Source: Candidatus Aminicenantes bacterium (lineage in GTDB: Bacteria; Acidobacteriota; Aminicenantia; UBA2199). From it: DNA of 64,000 nucleotides. A model generated the notes under the pieces. It worked only from the letters and a program-made list of their open reading frames with translations, had not been told where the DNA came from and did not search any database. Both the position numbers and the translations under genes were made by a program. Below are positions 18,265 to 64,000 of this stretch, piece after piece. The stretch's first letter is position 1. Every line of letters begins with the position of its first letter. Location of the stretch: NCBI GenBank assembly GCA_011049425.1, contig DSBM01000141.1:62969-126968 (forward strand). Direction: 5' to 3'.

Positions 18265-18579
18265 CTAAAAGGGCAGACCACCGGGGATACCCGGGATGCC
18301 CATGCCGCCCATTTGATTCTCAATCTCACTGTCCACCTTGGCCTGAGCATCGTTAACGGCCGCAATAATGAGGTCCTGAAGCATTTCCACATCTTCGGGA
18401 TCCACCACTTCCGGAGCGATGCGCAAGGATGTAATGGCTTTGTGACCGTTCATGTGCACCTGCACCATTCCACCACCCGCATTCCCCTCAACATCAAGAG
18501 CGTTCTTTTTCTCCTGTACTTCCTGAGCCATGCTCTGAGCCATCTGTATCATCTGGTTGATGTTCGGAATCTTGGCCAT
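18265..18579 (-). CDS. ybaB: Nucleoid-associated protein YbaB/EbfC
   Basis: 104 aa YbaB family ([37 protein letters not shown]). Confidence 0.85.
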
Positions 18580-20170
18580 CTCCTCCTCCTTGAATCTTGT
18601 CGACGCTGATCATCTGCGCCCGGATCTGTTCCGCCAGGTCCTTGATATTGCGATCACTGCGCATCTCTTTCTCGACTTCCGCGCGGGTGTCGCGGCCCAC
18701 GTCCACCAGAATGGGGAGGCGGCGGCGGTAGCGTTTGGCCAACGAGCGTTCGAGTACTTCGAGGTTGTCGTCAAGTACGGATTTCACATGGCCGTTGCCG
18801 CCGTCCACCACAACGCGGACGCGGTTGCCATCACACTCTACACTCGCCGCACGAATATGGGACGCCAGCCGGGGATTGTTTCTTTCCAGGTCTTCAATCC
18901 ACCAGACGCGTATGGTCTCTGCGCTGATATCAGGTACGTCCGCCTGGGGCTCTGCTTTTTTATCCCCTGAGAAACCGTTTCCGGCTTTTGCGGGCGGCAG
19001 ATCGGAAATAACTGAGTGGACAGGAGTTTCCCCTATCGATGCCTGCGTGTTCATTGCCCGAATGGCTTCTTCAATGGCAACAAGATCCGGGAAGTAAGAA
19101 AGCTTTAAAAACAGGTATTCCAGAATGATGCGCGGATTTTCCGTGTGCCGCACGGTCATTTCCATTTCCTTGGCGGCTTGAAAATAGCGCAAAAGTTCTT
19201 CTTCTTTAACAGCCGCGAGGATTTCACGAATCCGTGTCAGGTTCTCCGGATTGAGATTGTGCAAACTGCCCGGGTCCTCCATGCTGTGGACCACGATCAG
19301 GTCCCGCAGAAACTTCAGGTATTCCCCGTAGAAAAAGCGCAAATCGGCGCCACGCTCCACCAGCTCCTGCACGGACAGGATAATGTCCTTGCGACGGCGT
19401 TGCAACACGGCTTCGGTCAAGCGGATAAACAGTTCTTCTTCGATCACCCCCAGGATATCGACCACATCCTCGTCGCGCACATCTCCGTTGGACAAGGCTA
19501 TGGCCTGGTCCAGAACCTTTTTGGCATCACGCAGGCTGCCTTCGGATGAACGCGCAATCAGAAAAACGGCGTAATCGGATACTTTCACGCTCTCGCGTTT
19601 GCAGATTTCCCGCAACAGGCGCGCGATGACTTCAAAGGGAATGCGGCGAAACTCCAAATGCTGGCAGCGGGAAACAATGGTGGCGGGGATCTTGTGAAAA
19701 TCCGTGGTTGCCATGATAAAGTAGGTATGCTCCGGAGGTTCTTCAACGGTTTTCAATAACGCATTCCAGGCGGAATTCGACAACATGTGCACTTCATCGA
19801 TCACCACGACGCGATACCGGTTCTGCATCGGCTTGTACTTTACGGTTTCACGCAATCGACGTACCTCTTCCACGCCGTTGTTGGATGCACCGTCGATTTC
19901 AATATAATCCGACGACTGGTCCGCCGTGATTTCCCTGCAGAAGCGGCACTCATTGCAGGGCTCCCGGGAGGGTCCATTTTCACAATTCAACGCCTTGGCC
20001 AGAATACGGGCGGCGGACGTCTTGCCCACGCCTTTCATGCCGGAAAAGATCAGTGCCGGATAGAGTTTATCCATTTCCACGGCATTTTGAAGTGTTTTGA
20101 CCACGTGGGGCTGTCCGATCAGATCGCTGAAACGTTGGGGGCGGTATTTTCGTGCCAGTGCCAGGTACAT
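18494..20170 (-). CDS. dnaX: DNA polymerase III subunit gamma/tau
   Basis: AAA+ clamp-loader motifs ([16 protein letters not shown], zinc module [17 protein letters not shown]). The acidic/Gly-rich C-terminal tail overlaps the ybaB start. Confidence 0.85.
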
Positions 20171-58185: not shown

Positions 58186-58644
58186 ATGGCGTTCAACACG
58201 GACAGAAAAGACGACAAGGACAGTTTCAACCCGTTTTCATCCCGTTCACAAAATTCCGAATCCATGATCGGCGAATCTCTAACGGTTGAAGGTGAAATCC
58301 ACTCGGAAGAAGCGCTTGTGATCAGAGGCAAAGTCAAGGGCAACATTCACAGCAAACAGCCGTTGGTTGTGGAAGAGTCCGGTCAAGTCACGGGTGACCT
58401 CAACGGCAAGGTTATCACCATCCGCGGAACCGTTAAAGGCAAAGTGATATCTGCGCAAAAACTGCTTATCAGCGCATCCGGCTCATTTTGTGGAGACATC
58501 TCGGTTGAGAAACTGATCATCGAAGAGGGCGCCCGATTTAAAGGTCACGTCACCATGGACACACCCGCCCCGGCACAATCTCATAAACCCCCTTCCGAAA
58601 AAACTCCCGACAAGGGCACGGACAGCTCAAAGCCCGGCCATTGA
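58186..58644 (+). CDS. Bactofilin-family cytoskeletal protein
   Basis: DUF583 beta-helical repeats (VEGEIHSEEALVIRGKVKGNIHS...VTGDLNGKVITIRGTVKGKVIS...) and a Pro-rich C-terminal tail. Confidence 0.8.
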   Translation: MAFNTDRKDDKDSFNPFSSRSQNSESMIGESLTVEGEIHSEEALVIRGKVKGNIHSKQPLVVEESGQVTGDLNGKVITIRGTVKGKVISAQKLLISASGSFCGDISVEKLIIEEGARFKGHVTMDTPAPAQSHKPPSEKTPDKGTDSSKPGH

Positions 58645-58656
58645 CCGCAATCACTT

Positions 58657-60549
58657 TCAGCGCTTCCGGATAACGCGCACATCTCGCTGATTCAGGATAC
58701 CCGTCATTCTCAATGCGGCAACGCTACCGCTGACCACCATCAGACCCGATATTTTGCCGTATTTGGCAATCCTTGACTCCAGGCGGGTGTCCATAACAAC
58801 CATGCGCTCACCGATCTGTTTTCGGGCCAAGCGCATGCGCGCGGCAACCTTTCTTTGGGATGATTCGCGAAAAACCAGGTCAAACAGGTCCGCATGCGGC
58901 GGCAGGTGGAACCAGCGCCTGTATTTTGATTCCCGCCTCTGGAACGCTTCCTCTGACTGCAGCAACCTCAAGCCGTAATGAAAATGAAAAGTGGAAAAAA
59001 CATCCACGTGACCCCCATTTACGACCCATTCGCGCAAGCGCCCCACTACGACCTGGATCTGCTCGGCGGCATCGTACTCCGTAAAGTGGAAATCCGACTC
59101 GGGACGGAAATAGATAGCGGCCGTGAACGCTTGGCGGAATTCCGGTCGCAATACAGCCCAGGTCCCCATCACCACACGGCACCCATCTTGAGATGCCGCC
59201 GCCTCCATTGCCCGGGAATCGGACTCGGCCGTGATAACCGGGGGTTTTTGGCCCAGGATGCGTTTTTGTACCTGGTCCCGCAAGGATATCAGGTTACCCC
59301 GGGGAACCCGTACCAGTTCTTTTTTGCACCGATAACAGGTGGTTTCCGCTTTCCAGACTCCCCCGCAATTCGGGCAGGTCTTTGCCGTTTCCGGCCCCTT
59401 TCCCGGCAAAATGACTTCCCGGCAATGGGGACACCTGGCGATCATGCGGCAATGGGGACAGAAAAGATAATCTTCTCCCTGCAAGCGGTTCACCATAACC
59501 AGAACCCGGCGCCCTGCATCCAGATGTTCTGAAATTCGTTGCAGCAGGTTTAGTGGAATCCCCGGTGATCCCGGCGGCAAGGGGATTACTTTCGTTTCCA
59601 CCTTTTTTTTACAGCGGCTGTCTTCTACAACCACAAATGAGCGGCGACGGAACACCGCCAGTGGATGGGAATGATCACCCTGAACAAAAGGGATCCGCTC
59701 TATGGCGGCACGCAATCGCGCCAATTCGGGGACGGGCTCTGTTTCCCGCCCGCCAGGCCGGCTCAACCAGGCCGTAGGCTGCTCAACCACGACAATACCC
59801 AAGCGGGGAAATGGCAGCATCAACGCGGCTTGACCACCAACAACGGCAAGTGGCTCTCCGCCGACCGCCCGCGTCCAGGCATGCTCTCTGTCGGCTGCGG
59901 ACAATAGAGAATGGTACGCGACCATGCCCGGTGATTGGGCTATCATTTCTTTGGCAGTGCGGATATCCGAGGTAAGAAACAATGCACTGAAGCCCTTTTC
60001 CAGACATGCGTCCATCATCTCCTGATAATGGGGACTTCGCTGATAATCAAGTATCAAGCGCTCAGAAAATCCCGCTCCGGTTTGTTTCTGTGGGAAAACA
60101 GAACCGGGATCACCCAGGTTGCGGGAAAAAACGCCGAACTCAACCGGCAAAAGCCGCTTGGTCTTTTTCACTCCCTGCAAGTTCAGTGCCGGCAGTGCAG
60201 GTCCGGGTTCGCCATCCACCATCATGCGCAGCTGACGACGGTTACGTCGACGGGGAGATAACGCCGAGTCCAGCAGGATTCCCGGAGGCAGGAGAAAACG
60301 TCGCGCCGCATGCAGAACAAACTCCAGGTAAAGCGGCGGTAAACGAAAGGAATCCCGGACCCATCCAACCACCGGACGGATACGCCCGGTGTAATCCGAA
60401 GAAAATGAAACAACCCATCCCGTTTCCAAGCGATTGCCGATGGGAACGATCACCCGGCTCCCCAATCCGACCTGATCCAACCCGGACTCAGGAATAGAAT
60501 AGGTCAACGGTTCGATCAGGTTCAGGGACAAGGCGATGTGAACTTGCAC
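58657..60549 (-). CDS. priA: Primosomal protein N' (PriA)-like, with degenerate Walker A/B helicase motifs but an intact Cys-rich zinc module
   Basis: 3'-end-binding-like N-terminus. CxxC x4 zinc-binding region (CPHC...CPHC...CPNC...CYRC) and a PriA C-terminal domain. At the positions of E. coli GVTGSGKTEVY and VIDEEHD it has DYQRSPHYQEMM and VVVEQPTAW. Sits in the Bacillus-like gmk-coaBC-priA neighbourhood. Confidence 0.7.
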   Translation of the reverse strand: MQVHIALSLNLIEPLTYSIPESGLDQVGLGSRVIVPIGNRLETGWVVSFSSDYTGRIRPVVGWVRDSFRLPPLYLEFVLHAARRFLLPPGILLDSALSPRRRNRRQLRMMVDGEPGPALPALNLQGVKKTKRLLPVEFGVFSRNLGDPGSVFPQKQTGAGFSERLILDYQRSPHYQEMMDACLEKGFSALFLTSDIRTAKEMIAQSPGMVAYHSLLSAADREHAWTRAVGGEPLAVVGGQAALMLPFPRLGIVVVEQPTAWLSRPGGRETEPVPELARLRAAIERIPFVQGDHSHPLAVFRRRSFVVVEDSRCKKKVETKVIPLPPGSPGIPLNLLQRISEHLDAGRRVLVMVNRLQGEDYLFCPHCRMIARCPHCREVILPGKGPETAKTCPNCGGVWKAETTCYRCKKELVRVPRGNLISLRDQVQKRILGQKPPVITAESDSRAMEAAASQDGCRVVMGTWAVLRPEFRQAFTAAIYFRPESDFHFTEYDAAEQIQVVVGRLREWVVNGGHVDVFSTFHFHYGLRLLQSEEAFQRRESKYRRWFHLPPHADLFDLVFRESSQRKVAARMRLARKQIGERMVVMDTRLESRIAKYGKISGLMVVSGSVAALRMTGILNQRDVRVIRKR

Positions 60550-60552
60550 GGA

Positions 60553-61227
60553 TCAGGGCTTGAGAAGCTTTAACACTTCCTGCATATCAGCCCATACTTC
60601 CCACTTTGCCTTGGAGATGGACTCTTTTCCGCGTTGATGCAGAATGTAGGAGGGATGAAAGGTGGGAACAACGGGAATACCCTTGAACGAAAAGATTCGA
60701 CCCCGCATCCGTGAAATGGCCGCATGGTTCCCCAGCAAACGGTTGGCCGCCACCTTTCCCAAACATACAATCACGCGGGGAGACAACAAGTCAATCTGTT
60801 GATAAAGGTAGGGCAAACAAGCTTCCACTTCACTGTCGTTGGGATCCCGGTTCCCGGGCGGCCGGCATTTCACGATATTTCCGATGAACACGGATTCGCG
60901 GGAATGCCCCATGCGTTGAATCAGCCGGTCTAGCAGTTGGCCGGCTTTGCCCACAAAGGGCCGTCCTTCGCGATCTTCCTGTTCGCCGGGGCCCTCACCG
61001 ACAAACAGGATCAAAGGCTTTGGCGCCCCCTCACCGGGAACACTTTGGCGCCGCGTCTGGTGCAGGGAACAACGGGTACAGGAATGGATCCGTTGATGCA
61101 GAGACTCCAAAGAAACCGATTCTTTGCCCACAAGGGCGATGGCGGGCAAATTCAGGCTGTCCACCCCGAGTTCGCGAAAAAAGTGCAACCATTCCGCCAA
61201 TCCCGTTCTATTCATTTGCCGCCTCAC
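60553..61227 (-). CDS. udg: Uracil-DNA glycosylase, family 4 (Fe-S type)
   Basis: Family-4 motifs (GEGPGEQED; FVGKAGQLL) and N-terminal Cys residues (CTRCSLHQTRRQ). Confidence 0.85.
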   Translation of the reverse strand: MRRQMNRTGLAEWLHFFRELGVDSLNLPAIALVGKESVSLESLHQRIHSCTRCSLHQTRRQSVPGEGAPKPLILFVGEGPGEQEDREGRPFVGKAGQLLDRLIQRMGHSRESVFIGNIVKCRPPGNRDPNDSEVEACLPYLYQQIDLLSPRVIVCLGKVAANRLLGNHAAISRMRGRIFSFKGIPVVPTFHPSYILHQRGKESISKAKWEVWADMQEVLKLLKP

Positions 61228-61877
61228 TGTTTTTCCCGTAGTATTGACAAATGGACGACCTGAGCGGCAATCACCCGGGCCAATTCCGCTTTGGATCGGC
61301 TCGGTAAGGGGATGACTTGATCCGGGGTCATTAAAGTGACCCGGTTTGGAACCGCTCCAAAGGCGGGGTTTTGCTCAGAAATCTCATTGATTACTAATAT
61401 ATCAAGGTTCTTGGCAAAGAGTTTGCGCTTGCCGTTTTCCAGGGCATTCTCCGTCTCAGCGGCGAATCCCACCAGGACCTGTCGCGGCGTGCGGCGATTT
61501 CCCGCCTCTTTCAGAATGTCCGGATTGCGCTCCAGTTCCAGCAACAGTGGAGATCCGGCTTTCTTGATCTTGTGCGGGCTGCTGCGGGCTGGACGGAAAT
61601 CAGCAACGGCCGCAACCATTATGATGGCATCAACGCTGGAAAAGCAGGCAAAGACGGCTTCATGCATTTCCTGGGCGGTTTCCACTTTAATTAACTTTAC
61701 CCCGGACGGGTAGCGACAAACCGGCCCGGATATGAAAACAACTTCGCTTGCATATTTTTCAGCAAAAACTTTGGCGAGGTACAGTCCGGTTAAACCGGAT
61801 GAACGATTGCCCAGGAAACGGATGGGATCCAACGGCTCCCGGGTTGGGCCTGAGGTGATGAGCACACGTTTACACAC
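61224..61877 (-). CDS. coaB: Phosphopantothenate--cysteine ligase (CoaB) as a separate ORF
   Basis: ITSGPTREPLDPIRFLGNRSSG motif. A GTG start overlaps the coaC stop. Confidence 0.8.
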   Translation of the reverse strand: MCKRVLITSGPTREPLDPIRFLGNRSSGLTGLYLAKVFAEKYASEVVFISGPVCRYPSGVKLIKVETAQEMHEAVFACFSSVDAIIMVAAVADFRPARSSPHKIKKAGSPLLLELERNPDILKEAGNRRTPRQVLVGFAAETENALENGKRKLFAKNLDILVINEISEQNPAFGAVPNRVTLMTPDQVIPLPSRSKAELARVIAAQVVHLSILREKQ

Positions 61878-62403
61878 GCATCACTCCCAGACAGTGTTCC
61901 ACAATGTGTTGCGGTTCGGGCAGGCGACCGGCGCCTTTGCCGCCACAGGCCAATTCTCCCGAATCGGGAGGGATCACTTCCACACCCCGTTCTTTCAGTA
62001 TGGTTAGGTTGTGTTTTACCGCCGGGTGAGCGTACATGCCCTCGTTCATGGCGGGAGCAATCACAACCCGCCCGGGAAAAGCCAGGTAAGTGGCGCTCAG
62101 CAAATCATTCGCCATGCCGGCGGCCATGCGCGCGATGGTGGCCGCACTGGCTGGGGCAATCAGCAAAAGGTCGTGTTTTCGTCCCAGGTTGATATGCTCT
62201 AGCGGGTCATCGGCATCCTCAAACCATTGCGTGTGCACGCGTCCAGGCACAAAGGTATCAAACGTCAACGGCTTGACAAAGCGACAGGCATTCCGGGTCA
62301 ATACAACGCTGACATCATGGCCCAGCCGTTGGAAAGCGCGCAAAATGTCAACGGCCTTGTACGCGGAAATGGAACCGGTCACTGCAAGTAAAACGTTCAT
62401 CAC
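61870..62403 (-). CDS. coaC: Phosphopantothenoylcysteine decarboxylase (CoaC flavoprotein) as a separate ORF
   Basis: Flavoprotein motifs (LLAVTGSISAYKA; PAMNEGMY). Confidence 0.8.
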   Translation of the reverse strand: MMNVLLAVTGSISAYKAVDILRAFQRLGHDVSVVLTRNACRFVKPLTFDTFVPGRVHTQWFEDADDPLEHINLGRKHDLLLIAPASAATIARMAAGMANDLLSATYLAFPGRVVIAPAMNEGMYAHPAVKHNLTILKERGVEVIPPDSGELACGGKGAGRLPEPQHIVEHCLGVMRV

Positions 62404-63035
62404 TGCCCTCCAAGAATGCGTTTTACCCGTGATAGTTGTCTTTGCGCTCGTAACTCCATGGCGTTTACAATATGCACCAGCGCATCCAGCGCGTTGTCCA
62501 GGACATCGTTGATTACAATGAAATCGAAACAGTGGTGCAATGACATCTCATGCCGGGCGGTTTCCAATCGCTGTTCCATTGTGTGGGTCCATTGTGACTC
62601 CCTGTGCATCAGGCGCCGTCGCAATTCCTGCATGGAGGGCGGCATGATAAACACGGATATGCTGGCGGGCATCATTTTGCGAACCGCTTCCGCGCCCTGT
62701 ATATCCACATCCAGAATCATGGTGCGGTCACTTTTTTCAACCGCTCTCAACTCAGACCAACTGGTGCCGTAACGTTCACCATGCACGGCAGCCCATTCCA
62801 CAAACGCTTTGGCTTTAATCATGGCCGTAAACTCTGCATAATTTACGAAATGATAGTCTACACCGGGAGTTTCCCCGGGTCTGCGCTTGCGCGTGGTATG
62901 GGAGACGGAGAAATACAACCCAGGGACGGCCATCATCAGGCGACGGATCAAAGTTGTTTTCCCGGATCCGGAAGGCCCGGAAACAACCAGCAGGTGTTGG
63001 CCGTCTGATTGGGATTTTGCGTCAAGAGCCATCAA
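62400..63035 (-). CDS. gmk: Guanylate kinase
   Basis: P-loop (VVSGPSGSGKTTL) and the GK core. Confidence 0.9.
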   Translation of the reverse strand: MMALDAKSQSDGQHLLVVSGPSGSGKTTLIRRLMMAVPGLYFSVSHTTRKRRPGETPGVDYHFVNYAEFTAMIKAKAFVEWAAVHGERYGTSWSELRAVEKSDRTMILDVDIQGAEAVRKMMPASISVFIMPPSMQELRRRLMHRESQWTHTMEQRLETARHEMSLHHCFDFIVINDVLDNALDALVHIVNAMELRAQRQLSRVKRILGGQ

Positions 63036-63330
63036 TGTCTTCCCCTGCTTCAGGTCGTAAAGGCCTGGTTGTCGGCTCTTCTCCCCCGCCCTCCTGCATG
63101 CGGGCGACCAGTGAAGCCACCGAAATCGCCGATAAAAAGACCGGGCCGGAACGGCTGATCACCAATGCCCGCATCTTTTTCCCCATGGTGGCGTCAATCA
63201 ACCTGCCTTCATCTCGTTTTTCACGGACAAAACGCTTTATCGGTGAGGATCCGGGTTGAATGATGGCCAAAACCTGACTACGGGTCACACTGTTTCCAAA
63301 ACCAATGTGCAGCAGAATCCTATTCGACAT
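63022..63330 (-). CDS. remA: DUF370 / RemA-like protein (YlzA family)
   Basis: HIGFGN...IIQPGSSPIKR...RLIDATMGKKMRALVI matches B. subtilis RemA. Conserved position upstream of gmk. Confidence 0.75.
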   Translation of the reverse strand: MSNRILLHIGFGNSVTRSQVLAIIQPGSSPIKRFVREKRDEGRLIDATMGKKMRALVISRSGPVFLSAISVASLVARMQEGGGEEPTTRPLRPEAGEDIDGS

Positions 63331-64000
63331 TCTGTACCTGCTGACGGATTTTTTCGATCTCCCGGCGCACCATCAGGATCATGTGATGAATGTCCAGCGA
63401 AGCGGTTTTGGATGCAATGGTGTGGGTTTCTCGCAGCATTTCCTGTGAAAGAAAATCCGCTTCGCGCCCCTTTACCCATGGTTCCGGATTCTTTACCAGG
63501 GCCTGCAGTCTTTGGGTATGGGTTTCCAGGCGCTGGATCTCTTCACGGATGCAGCTCTTTTCCGCCGAAAGGGCGGCTTCCTGGGCAATGCGCCTCTCAT
63601 CCAACTCGTACTCCTTAACAAATCTGCGGATCTTTTCCTGAAGGTTGCTGAACACCAGGTTTTCAGCCTGGTCCGCTTCCGCTTCAATTTCTTCCAGGTA
63701 TTGCCGCACTCGCTGCAAAGAGTCGAGAATACTTGCCTGGATGAATTCGCCTTCTTCCGCGCGACTAACCACGAAATCATCGCAAACCTGACTGATGGAA
63801 GTGCGGATCAGGTCCAGGCTGGCGGGAGAGATTTTCTCAAACTCGTAATCCAGGTGGAAAATCATGGGGATTTTCATTAACGAATCCAGGGAAAGGTTGA
63901 TGGGGAATTTGTGCCTGCGATTAAAGGGGGCCATCTTCTCCAGGATCTCATCCAACAGGAATTCATTAAACTGAATATTCCACTTTAAGGGATCGCGTTC
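63320..64000 (-). CDS. yicC: YicC-family protein (UPF0701; N-terminus lies beyond window end)
   Basis: C-terminal DUF1732 region (FLSQEMLRETHTIASKTASLDIHHMILMVRREIEKIRQQVQNVE). The ORF stays open to position 64000. Confidence 0.7.
   Translation of the reverse strand, partial: ERDPLKWNIQFNEFLLDEILEKMAPFNRRHKFPINLSLDSLMKIPMIFHLDYEFEKISPASLDLIRTSISQVCDDFVVSRAEEGEFIQASILDSLQRVRQYLEEIEAEADQAENLVFSNLQEKIRRFVKEYELDERRIAQEAALSAEKSCIREEIQRLETHTQRLQALVKNPEPWVKGREADFLSQEMLRETHTIASKTASLDIHHMILMVRREIEKIRQQVQNVE

Follow-up and report, generated by a model that had tools for sequence, protein, structure and literature searches.

The window, by which we mean the whole 64-kb stretch of DNA analysed, contains a 630-aa open reading frame with a GTG start on the minus strand (positions 58657-60549), which a first-pass annotation had taken to encode a PriA homolog lacking the ATPase/helicase Walker motifs. 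It lies together with the following genes:

58657..60549, minus strand: gene for the predicted PriA pseudohelicase, 630 aa; GTG start at 60549, stop codon at 58657-58659
60553..61227, minus strand: udg, family-4 uracil-DNA glycosylase gene (Pfam UDG, E 1e-38), 3 nt upstream of the pseudohelicase gene
61224-61877, minus strand: coaB (Pfam DFP/Flavoprotein), with coaC a split coaBC
61870-62403, minus strand: coaC (Pfam DFP/Flavoprotein), with coaB a split coaBC
62400-63035, minus strand: gmk, in the upstream part of the conserved block
63022-63330, minus strand: remA-like gene, in the upstream part of the conserved block
63320-63955, minus strand: yicC-like gene, probably longer, in the upstream part of the conserved block

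The udg and pseudohelicase genes are probably co-transcribed and translationally coupled. The encoded protein has a net charge of +29 and is 100% identical to 'hypothetical protein ENN40_10155 [Candidatus Aminicenantes bacterium]' of NCBI, which derives from a metagenome-assembled genome (MAG); by this database match, two contigs from independent sources carry the identical protein. The gmk-coaBC-priA neighbourhood invoked in the first-pass annotation is present, with the nuance that coaBC is split into coaC and coaB and that a family-4 udg is inserted between coaB and the priA homolog. A single-protein query of genome contigs yielded one close relative (locus L001), and the order yicC-remA-gmk-coaC-coaB-udg-priA is kept across the related loci L001-L006, the split of coaBC being found also in L002-L006. 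The Anaerotruncus locus L009, with a canonical priA, reads yicC-remA-gmk-rpoZ-...-coaBC-priA-def-fmt, and the contexts of three other canonical PriA loci (L007, L008 and L012) contained no gmk, coaBC or udg. The Aminicenantes gene occupies the ancestral priA position.

By sequence and structural model, the product is a very divergent PriA. The PriA N-terminal region is kept, as had been claimed, with Pfam PriA_3primeBD (PF17764) matching residues 5-97 (E 8.7e-12; 45.2 bits versus a cutoff of 22.7). PriA was the sole family matched in NCBIfam and PDB comparisons: the structures of E. coli and K. pneumoniae PriA align to residues 3-553 with E~2e-17, and TIGR00595 gives an E value of 1.9e-23, its 82.9 bits falling below the equivalog cutoff of 230.35. 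When the AF2 model (pLDDT 76.9) was compared with known structures using Foldseek, the best nine matches were PriA structures (E 3e-30 to 2e-23), with Mfd, RecQ and RecG, which are generic SF2 helicases, ranking next. The model and the Foldseek alignment cover the full length of the protein, and both RecA-like SF2 lobes are present as a fold. A Pfam search of the product gave no DEAD, ResIII or Helicase_C match; PriA_C (PF18074) and Zn_ribbon_PriA (PF18319) were likewise without a match, so that these two domains are assigned by alignment and model only. The PriA architecture is retained, with a 3' DNA-binding domain (3'BD), two RecA-like lobes as a frame, a cysteine-rich region (CRR) inserted in lobe 2 and a probable C-terminal domain (CTD):

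60250..60549, minus strand: 3'BD, residues 1-100 (PF17764; pLDDT 82-92)
60070..60249, minus strand: short basic linker, residues 101-160, replacing the winged-helix domain (alignment gap, secondary structure, charge)
59650..60069, minus strand: former RecA-like helicase lobe 1, residues 161-300; fold retained, motifs I, Ia, II and III lost
60010..60063, minus strand: former Walker A site, ERLILD-YQRS-PHYQEMMD (alignments and AF2 model)
59758..59802, minus strand: former Walker B/DExH site, LGIVVVEQPTAWLSR (alignment)
59476..59496, minus strand: motif IV remnant MVNRLQG
59314..59463, minus strand: CRR, residues 363-412; four CxxC pairs, two predicted Zn sites
58960..59313, minus strand: C-terminal part of former RecA-like lobe 2, residues 413-530; motifs V and VI replaced
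58897..58995, minus strand: strongest clade signature, S-x-FHFHY...RExKYRxWFxLPP, residues 519-551 (alignment; low pLDDT)
58660..58959, minus strand: CTD, residues 531-630, net charge +13 (alignment, AF2 model, Foldseek)

Conserved positions include Y17, G30, R32, V33, P36, G44 and W45 in the 3'BD, and F536, E540, R544, P550 and P551 in the CTD, the latter five being invariant with canonical PriAs. The four-CxxC module is there as described previously (C364/367, C373/376, C392/395, C405/408); its cysteines align with those of canonical PriA and all eight are at least 85% conserved across 40 clade representatives. The winged-helix domain is missing or reduced, as judged from an alignment gap relative to canonical PriAs, and the linker found in its place has a net charge of +7 and opens with an SPRRRNRRQ stretch. 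E. coli PriA H455, a CRR residue with an important part in the CRR-UP state (PMC13594977), has no conserved equivalent, a difference that speaks against a restart role.

The motor has fared differently from the scaffold. Motif-by-motif alignment against 77 canonical PriAs, in which GxGKT, PEIxLT, DEEH, SAT, GTQMxxKG and QxxGRxGR were scored for motifs I, Ia, II, III, V and VI, respectively, indicates that each of these motifs is lost. HMMER and MAFFT agree in placing LILD----YQRSPHYQ opposite the canonical LLxGVTGSGKTEVY. The canonical P-loop is gone, as the first-pass annotation had it, not by mere substitution, however, but by physical deletion, visible as a 4-residue gap; in the AF2 model, strand 163-167 is joined to helix 172-184 by only 4 residues, which likewise implies that the P-loop is deleted. 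The Walker B reading, VVVEQPTAW, was borne out, the alignment placing GIVVVEQPTAW opposite the DEEH motif (canonical GLIV[VI]DEEHxxSY); across the clade, the first acidic residue of motif II stays D/E and the second is changed to Q, R or K. Motif V reads GTWAVLRPEF versus the canonical GTQMIAKGHDF, and motif VI VVGRLREWV versus QVAGRAGRG. Motif IV is only partly kept, with N[RK][KR] in most clade members; N354-R355 of the product align with N426-R427 of E. coli PriA, the ssDNA-binding residues of the PriA pore (PMC13594977). The evidence that had been named as decisive against motor loss, an intact GxxxxGK[ST] or DExH elsewhere in the protein, was searched for: neither these nor GK[ST] or GRxGR occur anywhere in the 630-aa product, and none of the 40 proteins representing the clade (23-77% identity) has a Walker A (GxxxxGK[ST]). 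At the level of sequence, loss of the ATPase/helicase motor is thus strongly supported, and the product, lacking a P-loop as well as motifs Ia, II, III, V and VI, is predicted to be unable to bind or hydrolyse ATP.

The losses are not confined to one sequence. The recommended check of orthologues showed that full-length relatives down to 23% identity, which form ~40 clusters at 50% identity, have the losses in common. In comparison with a 75%-identical orthologue, dN/dS is 0.198 overall (dS 0.76) and 0.12-0.26 in every domain, the corresponding range for twelve neighbouring genes being 0.09-0.19. The gene is therefore maintained by purifying selection and is not decaying, and its dN/dS, at the top of the range of its neighbours, suggests somewhat relaxed constraint.

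PriAs with partially eroded motors were found outside the clade. Motif states were read by column extraction from a 180-sequence alignment, which replaced a coarser regex classification that also flagged proteins scoring up to 510 bits on TIGR00595. In this alignment, an intermediate class of PriA is real, Walker A and motif VI being lost and motif II often kept. Approximately 47 of the 150 best profile matches outside the clade are also devoid of Walker A and motif VI, suggesting, at the level of sequence, that uncultured Acidobacteriota commonly encode a Walker-A-less PriA; given this number and the precedent of Deinococcus radiodurans (PMC4504706), the description of a motor-less PriA as rare was an overstatement. 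Furthermore, the coaBC-udg-priA arrangement is shared by proteins of different states: in locus L013 it carries a canonical PriA, whereas in L010 and L011, both labelled Acidobacteriota, it carries Walker-A-less intermediates. The occurrence of canonical, Walker-A-less and fully degenerate PriA at one and the same locus suggests stepwise decay. In the non-helicase domains, the identity of the intermediates to the Aminicenantes clade (0.227) is not clearly separated from that of canonical PriAs (0.212), and hence the series rests on synteny and taxon labels, neither on distance nor on a tree.

Collectively, we consider a positional priA orthologue turned pseudohelicase, which acts in ATP-independent fork recognition and primosome assembly, to be the best reading of the gene, with a probability of about 0.75; this role is the most likely one by analogy with studied PriAs. 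DNA binding, recruitment of DnaB and participation in restart are inferred from the same analogy, for which the PriA-DnaB interaction in D. radiodurans and the ability of E. coli priA300 to support the PriA/PriB pathway provide the basis. The conserved 3'BD, motif IV, CRR and CTD, together with the net charge of +29, would fit binding to DNA and DnaB, as indirect support. It is reasonable to suppose, as the first-pass annotation did, that restart in this organism would depend on PriA only as a DnaB-loading platform. Under this scenario, an abandoned fork would be recognised by the 3'BD through the 3' end of its nascent leading strand and held by the lobes together with the CTD and the basic linker, while the CRR and the retained basic motif IV would trap the single-stranded lagging-strand template in the PriA pore. 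The trapped complex could then recruit DnaB, either directly or via a loader or SSB, with no unwinding by PriA. Restart would accordingly be possible only at forks where ssDNA of the lagging strand is exposed beforehand, unless another helicase clears that strand. To our knowledge, PriB and DnaT are not expected in the Aminicenantes lineage. As a point against a restart role, ATPase-dead PriA of E. coli needs PriB (PMC5778457, PMC13594977).

A different function altogether, outside restart, is unlikely. The protein might, for instance, serve as a DNA-binding partner that couples the family-4 UDG to forks or ssDNA, as the conserved adjacency of udg, only 3 nt upstream, could be taken to imply. 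However, udg also adjoins the fully canonical priA of L013, and the adjacency is thus older than motor loss, for which it offers no explanation. Similarly, the whole protein, its non-helicase domains included, is only ~21-23% identical to other PriAs, and the strongly conserved clade-specific motif at residues 519-551 has no known role, both of which would fit a new function; yet the retained 3'BD, motif IV, CRR and CTD are precisely the parts of PriA that serve fork recognition and primosome assembly.

Quite unlikely, too, is a redundant and drifting paralogue, surviving as a relic or in a side role next to a canonical priA elsewhere in the genome. The ancestral priA position of the gene speaks against it, as does the coaBC-udg-priA locus, which carries a canonical PriA in some lineages and an intermediate or degenerate one in others. 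Purifying selection comparable to that on neighbouring housekeeping genes and full-length retention down to 23% identity point in the same direction, and no canonical PriA labelled Aminicenantes was among the matches. What room this explanation has comes from the scope of the search for a second priA, which covered the 64-kb window only. A second PriA or another SF2 helicase nearby was considered and rejected, none being encoded within the window.

Residual ATPase or translocase activity via a non-canonical nucleotide site is very improbable. The D/E at the first acidic position of motif II across the clade, the basic motif IV and the selection on both RecA-like lobes would be compatible with it. 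Nonetheless, the 40 clade proteins contain no P-loop-like element, the 4-residue loop between strand 1 and helix 1 in the AF2 model is too short to wrap a phosphate, and the arginine-finger motif VI has disappeared along with motifs III and V; in E. coli PriA, the lone K230R change suffices to abolish activity (PMC4504706, PMC5778457). Finally, the possibility that sequencing, assembly or a frameshift produced an artefact, or that the gene is a recent pseudogene, found no support and has a negligible probability, being effectively refuted by the uninterrupted 630-aa frame, the identical protein on two contigs from independent sources, a dN/dS of 0.2 and the same losses in orthologues from dozens of metagenome assemblies (~40 clusters).

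Assuming that the pseudohelicase reading is correct, no concept is overturned, since ATPase-dead PriA is already known to be restart-capable in E. coli and to occur naturally in Deinococcus. Rather, the clade brings a second lineage of motor-less PriA, independent of the first and far more eroded, in which the pattern of what is kept and lost amounts to a natural deletion experiment separating scaffold (3'BD, motif IV, CRR, CTD) from motor. It also offers candidates for studying how DnaB may be loaded anew when PriA does not unwind DNA and neither PriB nor DnaT takes part. Annotation errs in both directions, Walker-A-less PriAs often being named 'replication restart helicase' and the most eroded ones 'hypothetical protein'. 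A broader proposal, which we advance tentatively and at somewhat less than even odds, is that restart in the class-level lineage Aminicenantia has a motor-less PriA as its sole initiator, with a graded series from canonical through Walker-A-less to motif-less forms at coaBC-udg-priA in related Acidobacteriota. If so, PriA helicase activity would have been dispensable in nature for a very long time and in more than one phylum, and the minimal set for fork recognition and primosome assembly would comprise the 3'BD, the basic pair of motif IV, the two-zinc CRR, the FHFHY...RExKYRxWFxLPP element and the CTD. Surveys would moreover score such genomes as PriA-less because the protein is annotated as 'hypothetical'.

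Canonical PriA of E. coli and K. pneumoniae (PDB 4NL4, 6DGD, 6DCR, 8FAK) has the same domain order and fold as the Aminicenantes protein and shares with it the 3'BD, the four-CxxC CRR in lobe 2, the basic residue of motif IV, CTD elements and the coaBC-adjacent position, but the two are only ~19-20% identical and all motifs for ATP binding and hydrolysis are absent from the latter. The intermediate PriAs from Acidobacteriota MAGs (MFW6160026.1 = P0085, MEW6455313.1 = P0090, and P0091), of which we found no description in the literature, have also lost Walker A and motif VI, have kept the 3'BD, CRR and CTD and share the locus (DUF465-ABC-yicC-gmk-coaBC-udg-priA). Unlike the Aminicenantes protein, they often keep PEI (Ia), DEEQ/H (II) and GTQ (V); they pass TIGR00595, are ~716 or ~630 aa long and are automatically named 'replication restart helicase PriA'. 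The actinobacterial 'primosome assembly protein PriA' (NF011453/PRK14873) is the sole NCBIfam model aligning from the N-terminus (residues 13-416), although the match is weak (55 bits versus a cutoff of 812) and comes from a different phylum. As far as we know, UniProt/HAMAP entries of mycobacterial and streptomycete PriAs carry a flag that helicase domains are not detectable. Our literature search for further PriAs that are helicase-dead by nature, in Actinobacteria or elsewhere, found nothing beyond the 2015 Deinococcus study (PMC4504706).

Two precedents, the Deinococcus pseudohelicase and E. coli K230R, make motor-less PriA an already known kind of protein. The E. coli K230R variant (priA300) is motor-dead, as the Aminicenantes protein is predicted to be, and still assembles primosomes and supports restart in vivo via the PriA/PriB pathway (PMC5778457, PMC13594977). 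It was, however, engineered by exchanging one residue of a PriA that is canonical in all other respects, and it depends on PriB and DnaT, whereas the state seen here is natural and long established. Closer is PriA of D. radiodurans, which has no ATPase or helicase activity and binds ssDNA, forks and DnaB (Lopper, Boone & Morrow 2015, PMC4504706); PriA motifs are degenerate in the whole Deinococcus-Thermus phylum, where a recognisable Walker A is kept with K changed to R (PMC4504706). Both are natural orthologues with Walker A and B off consensus and with the 3'BD, CRR and C-terminal parts kept, and similar behaviour is to be expected, shown for D. radiodurans and predicted for the protein described here. 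In the independent Aminicenantes/Acidobacteriota lineage, decay has gone much further than in Deinococcus: the protein has lost its P-loop by deletion, together with motifs Ia, III, V and VI, lacks all or part of its winged-helix domain, falls far under the TIGR00595 cutoff and is annotated as 'hypothetical'. Deinococcus alone has a PriA pseudohelicase established by experiment, and the Aminicenantes protein appears to be a more extreme form of it in an uncultured lineage.

The candidate gene and the neighbouring features considered here are the following.

58657-60549, reverse strand: priA-like gene, an uninterrupted ORF of 630 aa with a GTG start
60553-61227, reverse strand: family-4 uracil-DNA glycosylase (udg), extended at its N-terminus by about 60 aa, directly upstream of the priA-like gene
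61224-62403, reverse strand: split coaBC, comprising coaC (177 aa) and coaB (217 aa) with an 8-nt overlap
58186-58644, forward strand: bactofilin gene, converging on the 3′ end of the priA-like gene

The GTG start lies 3 nt downstream of the stop of the preceding gene. The encoded protein (the query) matches NCBI 'hypothetical protein ENN40_10155 [Candidatus Aminicenantes bacterium]' at 100% identity and is present on two contigs, the longest of 207 kb. It passes the Pfam threshold for PriA_3primeBD, the 3′ DNA-binding domain (3′BD; E = 8.7e-12, 45 bits versus 22.7), and the Pfam search returned no DEAD, ResIII, Helicase_C, Zn_ribbon_PriA or PriA_C match. Against TIGR00595 it scores only 83 bits (E = 1.9e-23) and fails the cutoff of 230. 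The sole significant matches in a PDB sequence search were the PriA proteins of E. coli and K. pneumoniae (E ~2e-17, residues 3-553). Judged by these comparisons, the query is a very divergent PriA.

The first-pass annotation had described a PriA homolog with apparent loss of the ATPase/helicase Walker motifs. In the PDB PriA alignments both sites read as it gave them, with LILDYQRSPHYQEMM opposite LLAGVTGSGKTEVYLSVL and, at Walker B, 'GIVVVEQ--PTAW' opposite GVIVIDEEHDSSY. An intact GxxxxGK[ST] or DExH elsewhere in the query, named in that annotation as refuting the loss, did not turn up: a pattern scan of the whole protein detected no GxxxxGK[ST], GK[ST], DExH, SAT or GRxGR. Motifs were mapped in two alignments of the query, first against canonical PriAs and later against the whole collection of 180 full-length proteins.

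Helicase motifs in canonical PriAs and in the query.
Motif I: canonical GVTGSGKTE; query D----YQRS, a four-residue deletion
Motif Ia: canonical VPEI(A/S)LT; query TSDIRTA
Motif II: canonical (V/I)DEE(H/Q); query VEQPTAW
Motif III: canonical GSATPS; query QGDHSHP
Motif V: canonical GTQM(I/V)AKG(H/L)DF; query GTWAVLRPEF
Motif VI: canonical QVAGRAGRG; query VVGRLREWV

The fold was modelled with AlphaFold2 from an 11-sequence alignment of the clade formed by the query and its fully degenerate relatives (pLDDT 76.9, pTM 0.62). In Foldseek searches against PDB, the nine best matches were all PriA entries (6DCR, 8FAK, 6DGD, 4NL4, 4NL8; E 3e-30 to 2e-23, TM about 0.5-0.58), followed by generic SF2 helicases (Mfd, RecQ, RecG) at E of 1e-8 or weaker; given this ranking, both RecA-like lobes are predicted to persist as a frame. 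A P-loop requires eight residues, and in the model strand 163-167 is joined to helix 172-184 by four.

The query retains the 3′BD, the motif IV basic residues, the cysteine-rich region (CRR) and the C-terminal domain (CTD). Of the helicase elements, motif IV alone survives in part: its N354-R355 pair is aligned with N426-R427 of E. coli, and N[RK][KR] occurs at this place in most members of the clade. In E. coli PriA, the lagging-strand ssDNA within the CRR-closed pore is bound by R427 and R428 (PMC13594977). The 3′BD core is conserved in the clade, as are, at ≥85%, the four CxxC pairs (C364/367, C373/376, C392/395, C405/408), and CTD residues F536, E540, R544, P550 and P551 are invariant even relative to canonical PriAs. 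A basic stretch of about 55 residues replaces the winged-helix (WH) domain; net charge is +29 for the protein, +13 for the CTD and +7 for the linker. The 629-aa clade member P0009 is without the four middle CRR cysteines (C373, C376, C392, C395) and therefore probably binds one zinc rather than two; all eight are retained in the other clade members. The most conserved clade-specific element, S-x-FHFHY...RExKYRxWFxLPP (residues 519-551; 58897-58995, reverse strand), has the lowest confidence in the model (pLDDT 36-42) and may act as a hinge or provide a surface for binding a partner.

Compared with the 75%-identical orthologue from another Aminicenantes MAG (JAFGNX010000116.1), the gene has a dN/dS of 0.198 overall (dS 0.76) and of 0.12-0.26 in each domain, both former lobes included; 12 neighbouring genes of the same genome pair gave 0.09-0.19. 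A clade profile searched against 1.84 billion representatives recovered about 35-40 full-length clusters (50% identity) at 360-1050 bits, followed by a sharp drop to ≤235 bits. These clusters, 23-77% identical to the query (median 30%), all miss motifs I, II and VI, and the pattern scan found Walker A in none of 40 clade representatives. A pseudogene or artefact is excluded by the presence on two contigs, the orthologue clusters and the dN/dS. All named members are labelled Candidatus Aminicenantes or Acidobacteriota. IMG names a few 'primosomal protein N'', and every NCBI copy (P0001, P0212, P0050, P0229, P0230) is annotated 'hypothetical protein', so that gene-presence surveys would score these Aminicenantes genomes as priA-less.

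The next-best profile matches make up an intermediate class, about 716 or about 630 aa long, in which motif VI is lost together with Walker A (for example, 'G-SQ-EKR'); its members often retain PEI, DEEQ/H and GTQ, and they pass TIGR00595. Walker A and motif VI are missing from about 47 of the 150 best matches outside the clade. These Walker-A-less proteins (within P0078-P0182, plus P0012, P0028 and P0030) carry the automatic names 'replication restart helicase PriA' or 'primosomal protein N''; two NCBI-named examples, MFW6160026.1 and MEW6455313.1 respectively, come from Acidobacteriota MAGs. Among uncultured bacteria, putatively helicase-dead PriAs look common and have gone unrecognised; taxonomy was resolved for the two proteins labelled Acidobacteriota.

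The order yicC-remA-gmk-coaC-coaB-udg-priA is common to the window, L002-L005 (56% identity) and L006 (30%). Since it matches the canonical locus of the firmicute Anaerotruncus (L009; yicC-remA-gmk-rpoZ-...-coaBC-priA-def-fmt), the degenerate gene occupies the ancestral priA position. Intermediate PriAs lie in a matching block (DUF465-ABC exporter-yicC-gmk-coaBC-udg-priA; L010, L011), and canonical P0017 directly follows coaBC-udg in L013, whose UDG is 43% identical to that of the window. The same locus therefore holds a canonical, Walker-A-less or fully degenerate PriA depending on lineage, and the udg-priA adjacency, shared by all three, predates motor loss. Synteny and taxon labels together suggest stepwise erosion following motor loss; sequence distances over the non-helicase domains left the order of the three states unresolved. 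The udg-priA spacing is a 3-nt spacer in the window and a 4-nt overlap in L010. The coaC/coaB split is kept throughout the degenerate clade (window, L002-L006), coaBC being one fused gene in L009, L010, L011 and L013. The bactofilin and priA stop codons are 12 nt apart, without room for separate terminators, a convergence kept in L002-L005 and absent from intermediate loci. Positions 1-57000 are ordinary core chromosome (der, rny, pheS/pheT, thrS, an aconitase-family gene, fusA, dnaX at 18494-20170, an AcrB-type efflux operon, S49 peptidase, rseP, dxr, a release factor, an Mla-like ABC system and an LPG_synthase_C-domain gene), with no sign of a mobile or defence context.

A protein of PriA ancestry and fold, devoid of all nucleotide-binding elements and maintained under selection, could still promote restart. 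D. radiodurans PriA has neither ATPase nor helicase activity; its Kd is about 215 nM for ssDNA and about 109 nM for forks, and it also binds DnaB (PMC4504706). The engineered ATPase-dead E. coli PriA K230R sustains restart by the PriA/PriB pathway (PMC5778457, PMC13594977), and the step licensing primosome assembly is CRR trapping of about 9 nt of ssDNA (PMC13594977). By analogy, the query would recognise abandoned forks through its 3′BD, use the CRR and motif IV to trap lagging-strand ssDNA, and recruit DnaB directly or via a loader or SSB, without unwinding. Its action should then be confined to forks on which lagging-strand ssDNA is already exposed, or depend on a different helicase to clear the nascent lagging strand. 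A less likely alternative is that the gene is a relic copy and that the genome has another, canonical priA; a search of the 64-kb window found none there, and both the series of PriA states at one locus and the level of selection speak against a relic. A new function tied to the co-operonic UDG is weakened by the same adjacency next to canonical PriA in L013. The query is very unlikely to use a non-canonical ATP site, given the motif loss in the alignment, the lack of Walker A in the pattern scan and the four-residue loop in the model.

UniProt reportedly flags actinobacterial PriAs as being without detectable helicase domains. Work published in 2015 established the natural PriA pseudohelicase in Deinococcus-Thermus (PMC4504706), the group named as the exception in the main review (PMC5778457). 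The evidence for numerous Walker-A-less PriAs in uncultured bacteria, misnamed in both directions, is new. Compared with the Deinococcus-Thermus pseudohelicases, the Aminicenantes/Acidobacteriota proteins are alike in kind; new are the lineage and, as read from sequence, how far erosion has gone: the P-loop is deleted, six motifs and the WH domain have been lost, and the score falls below curated PriA thresholds such as that of TIGR00595.
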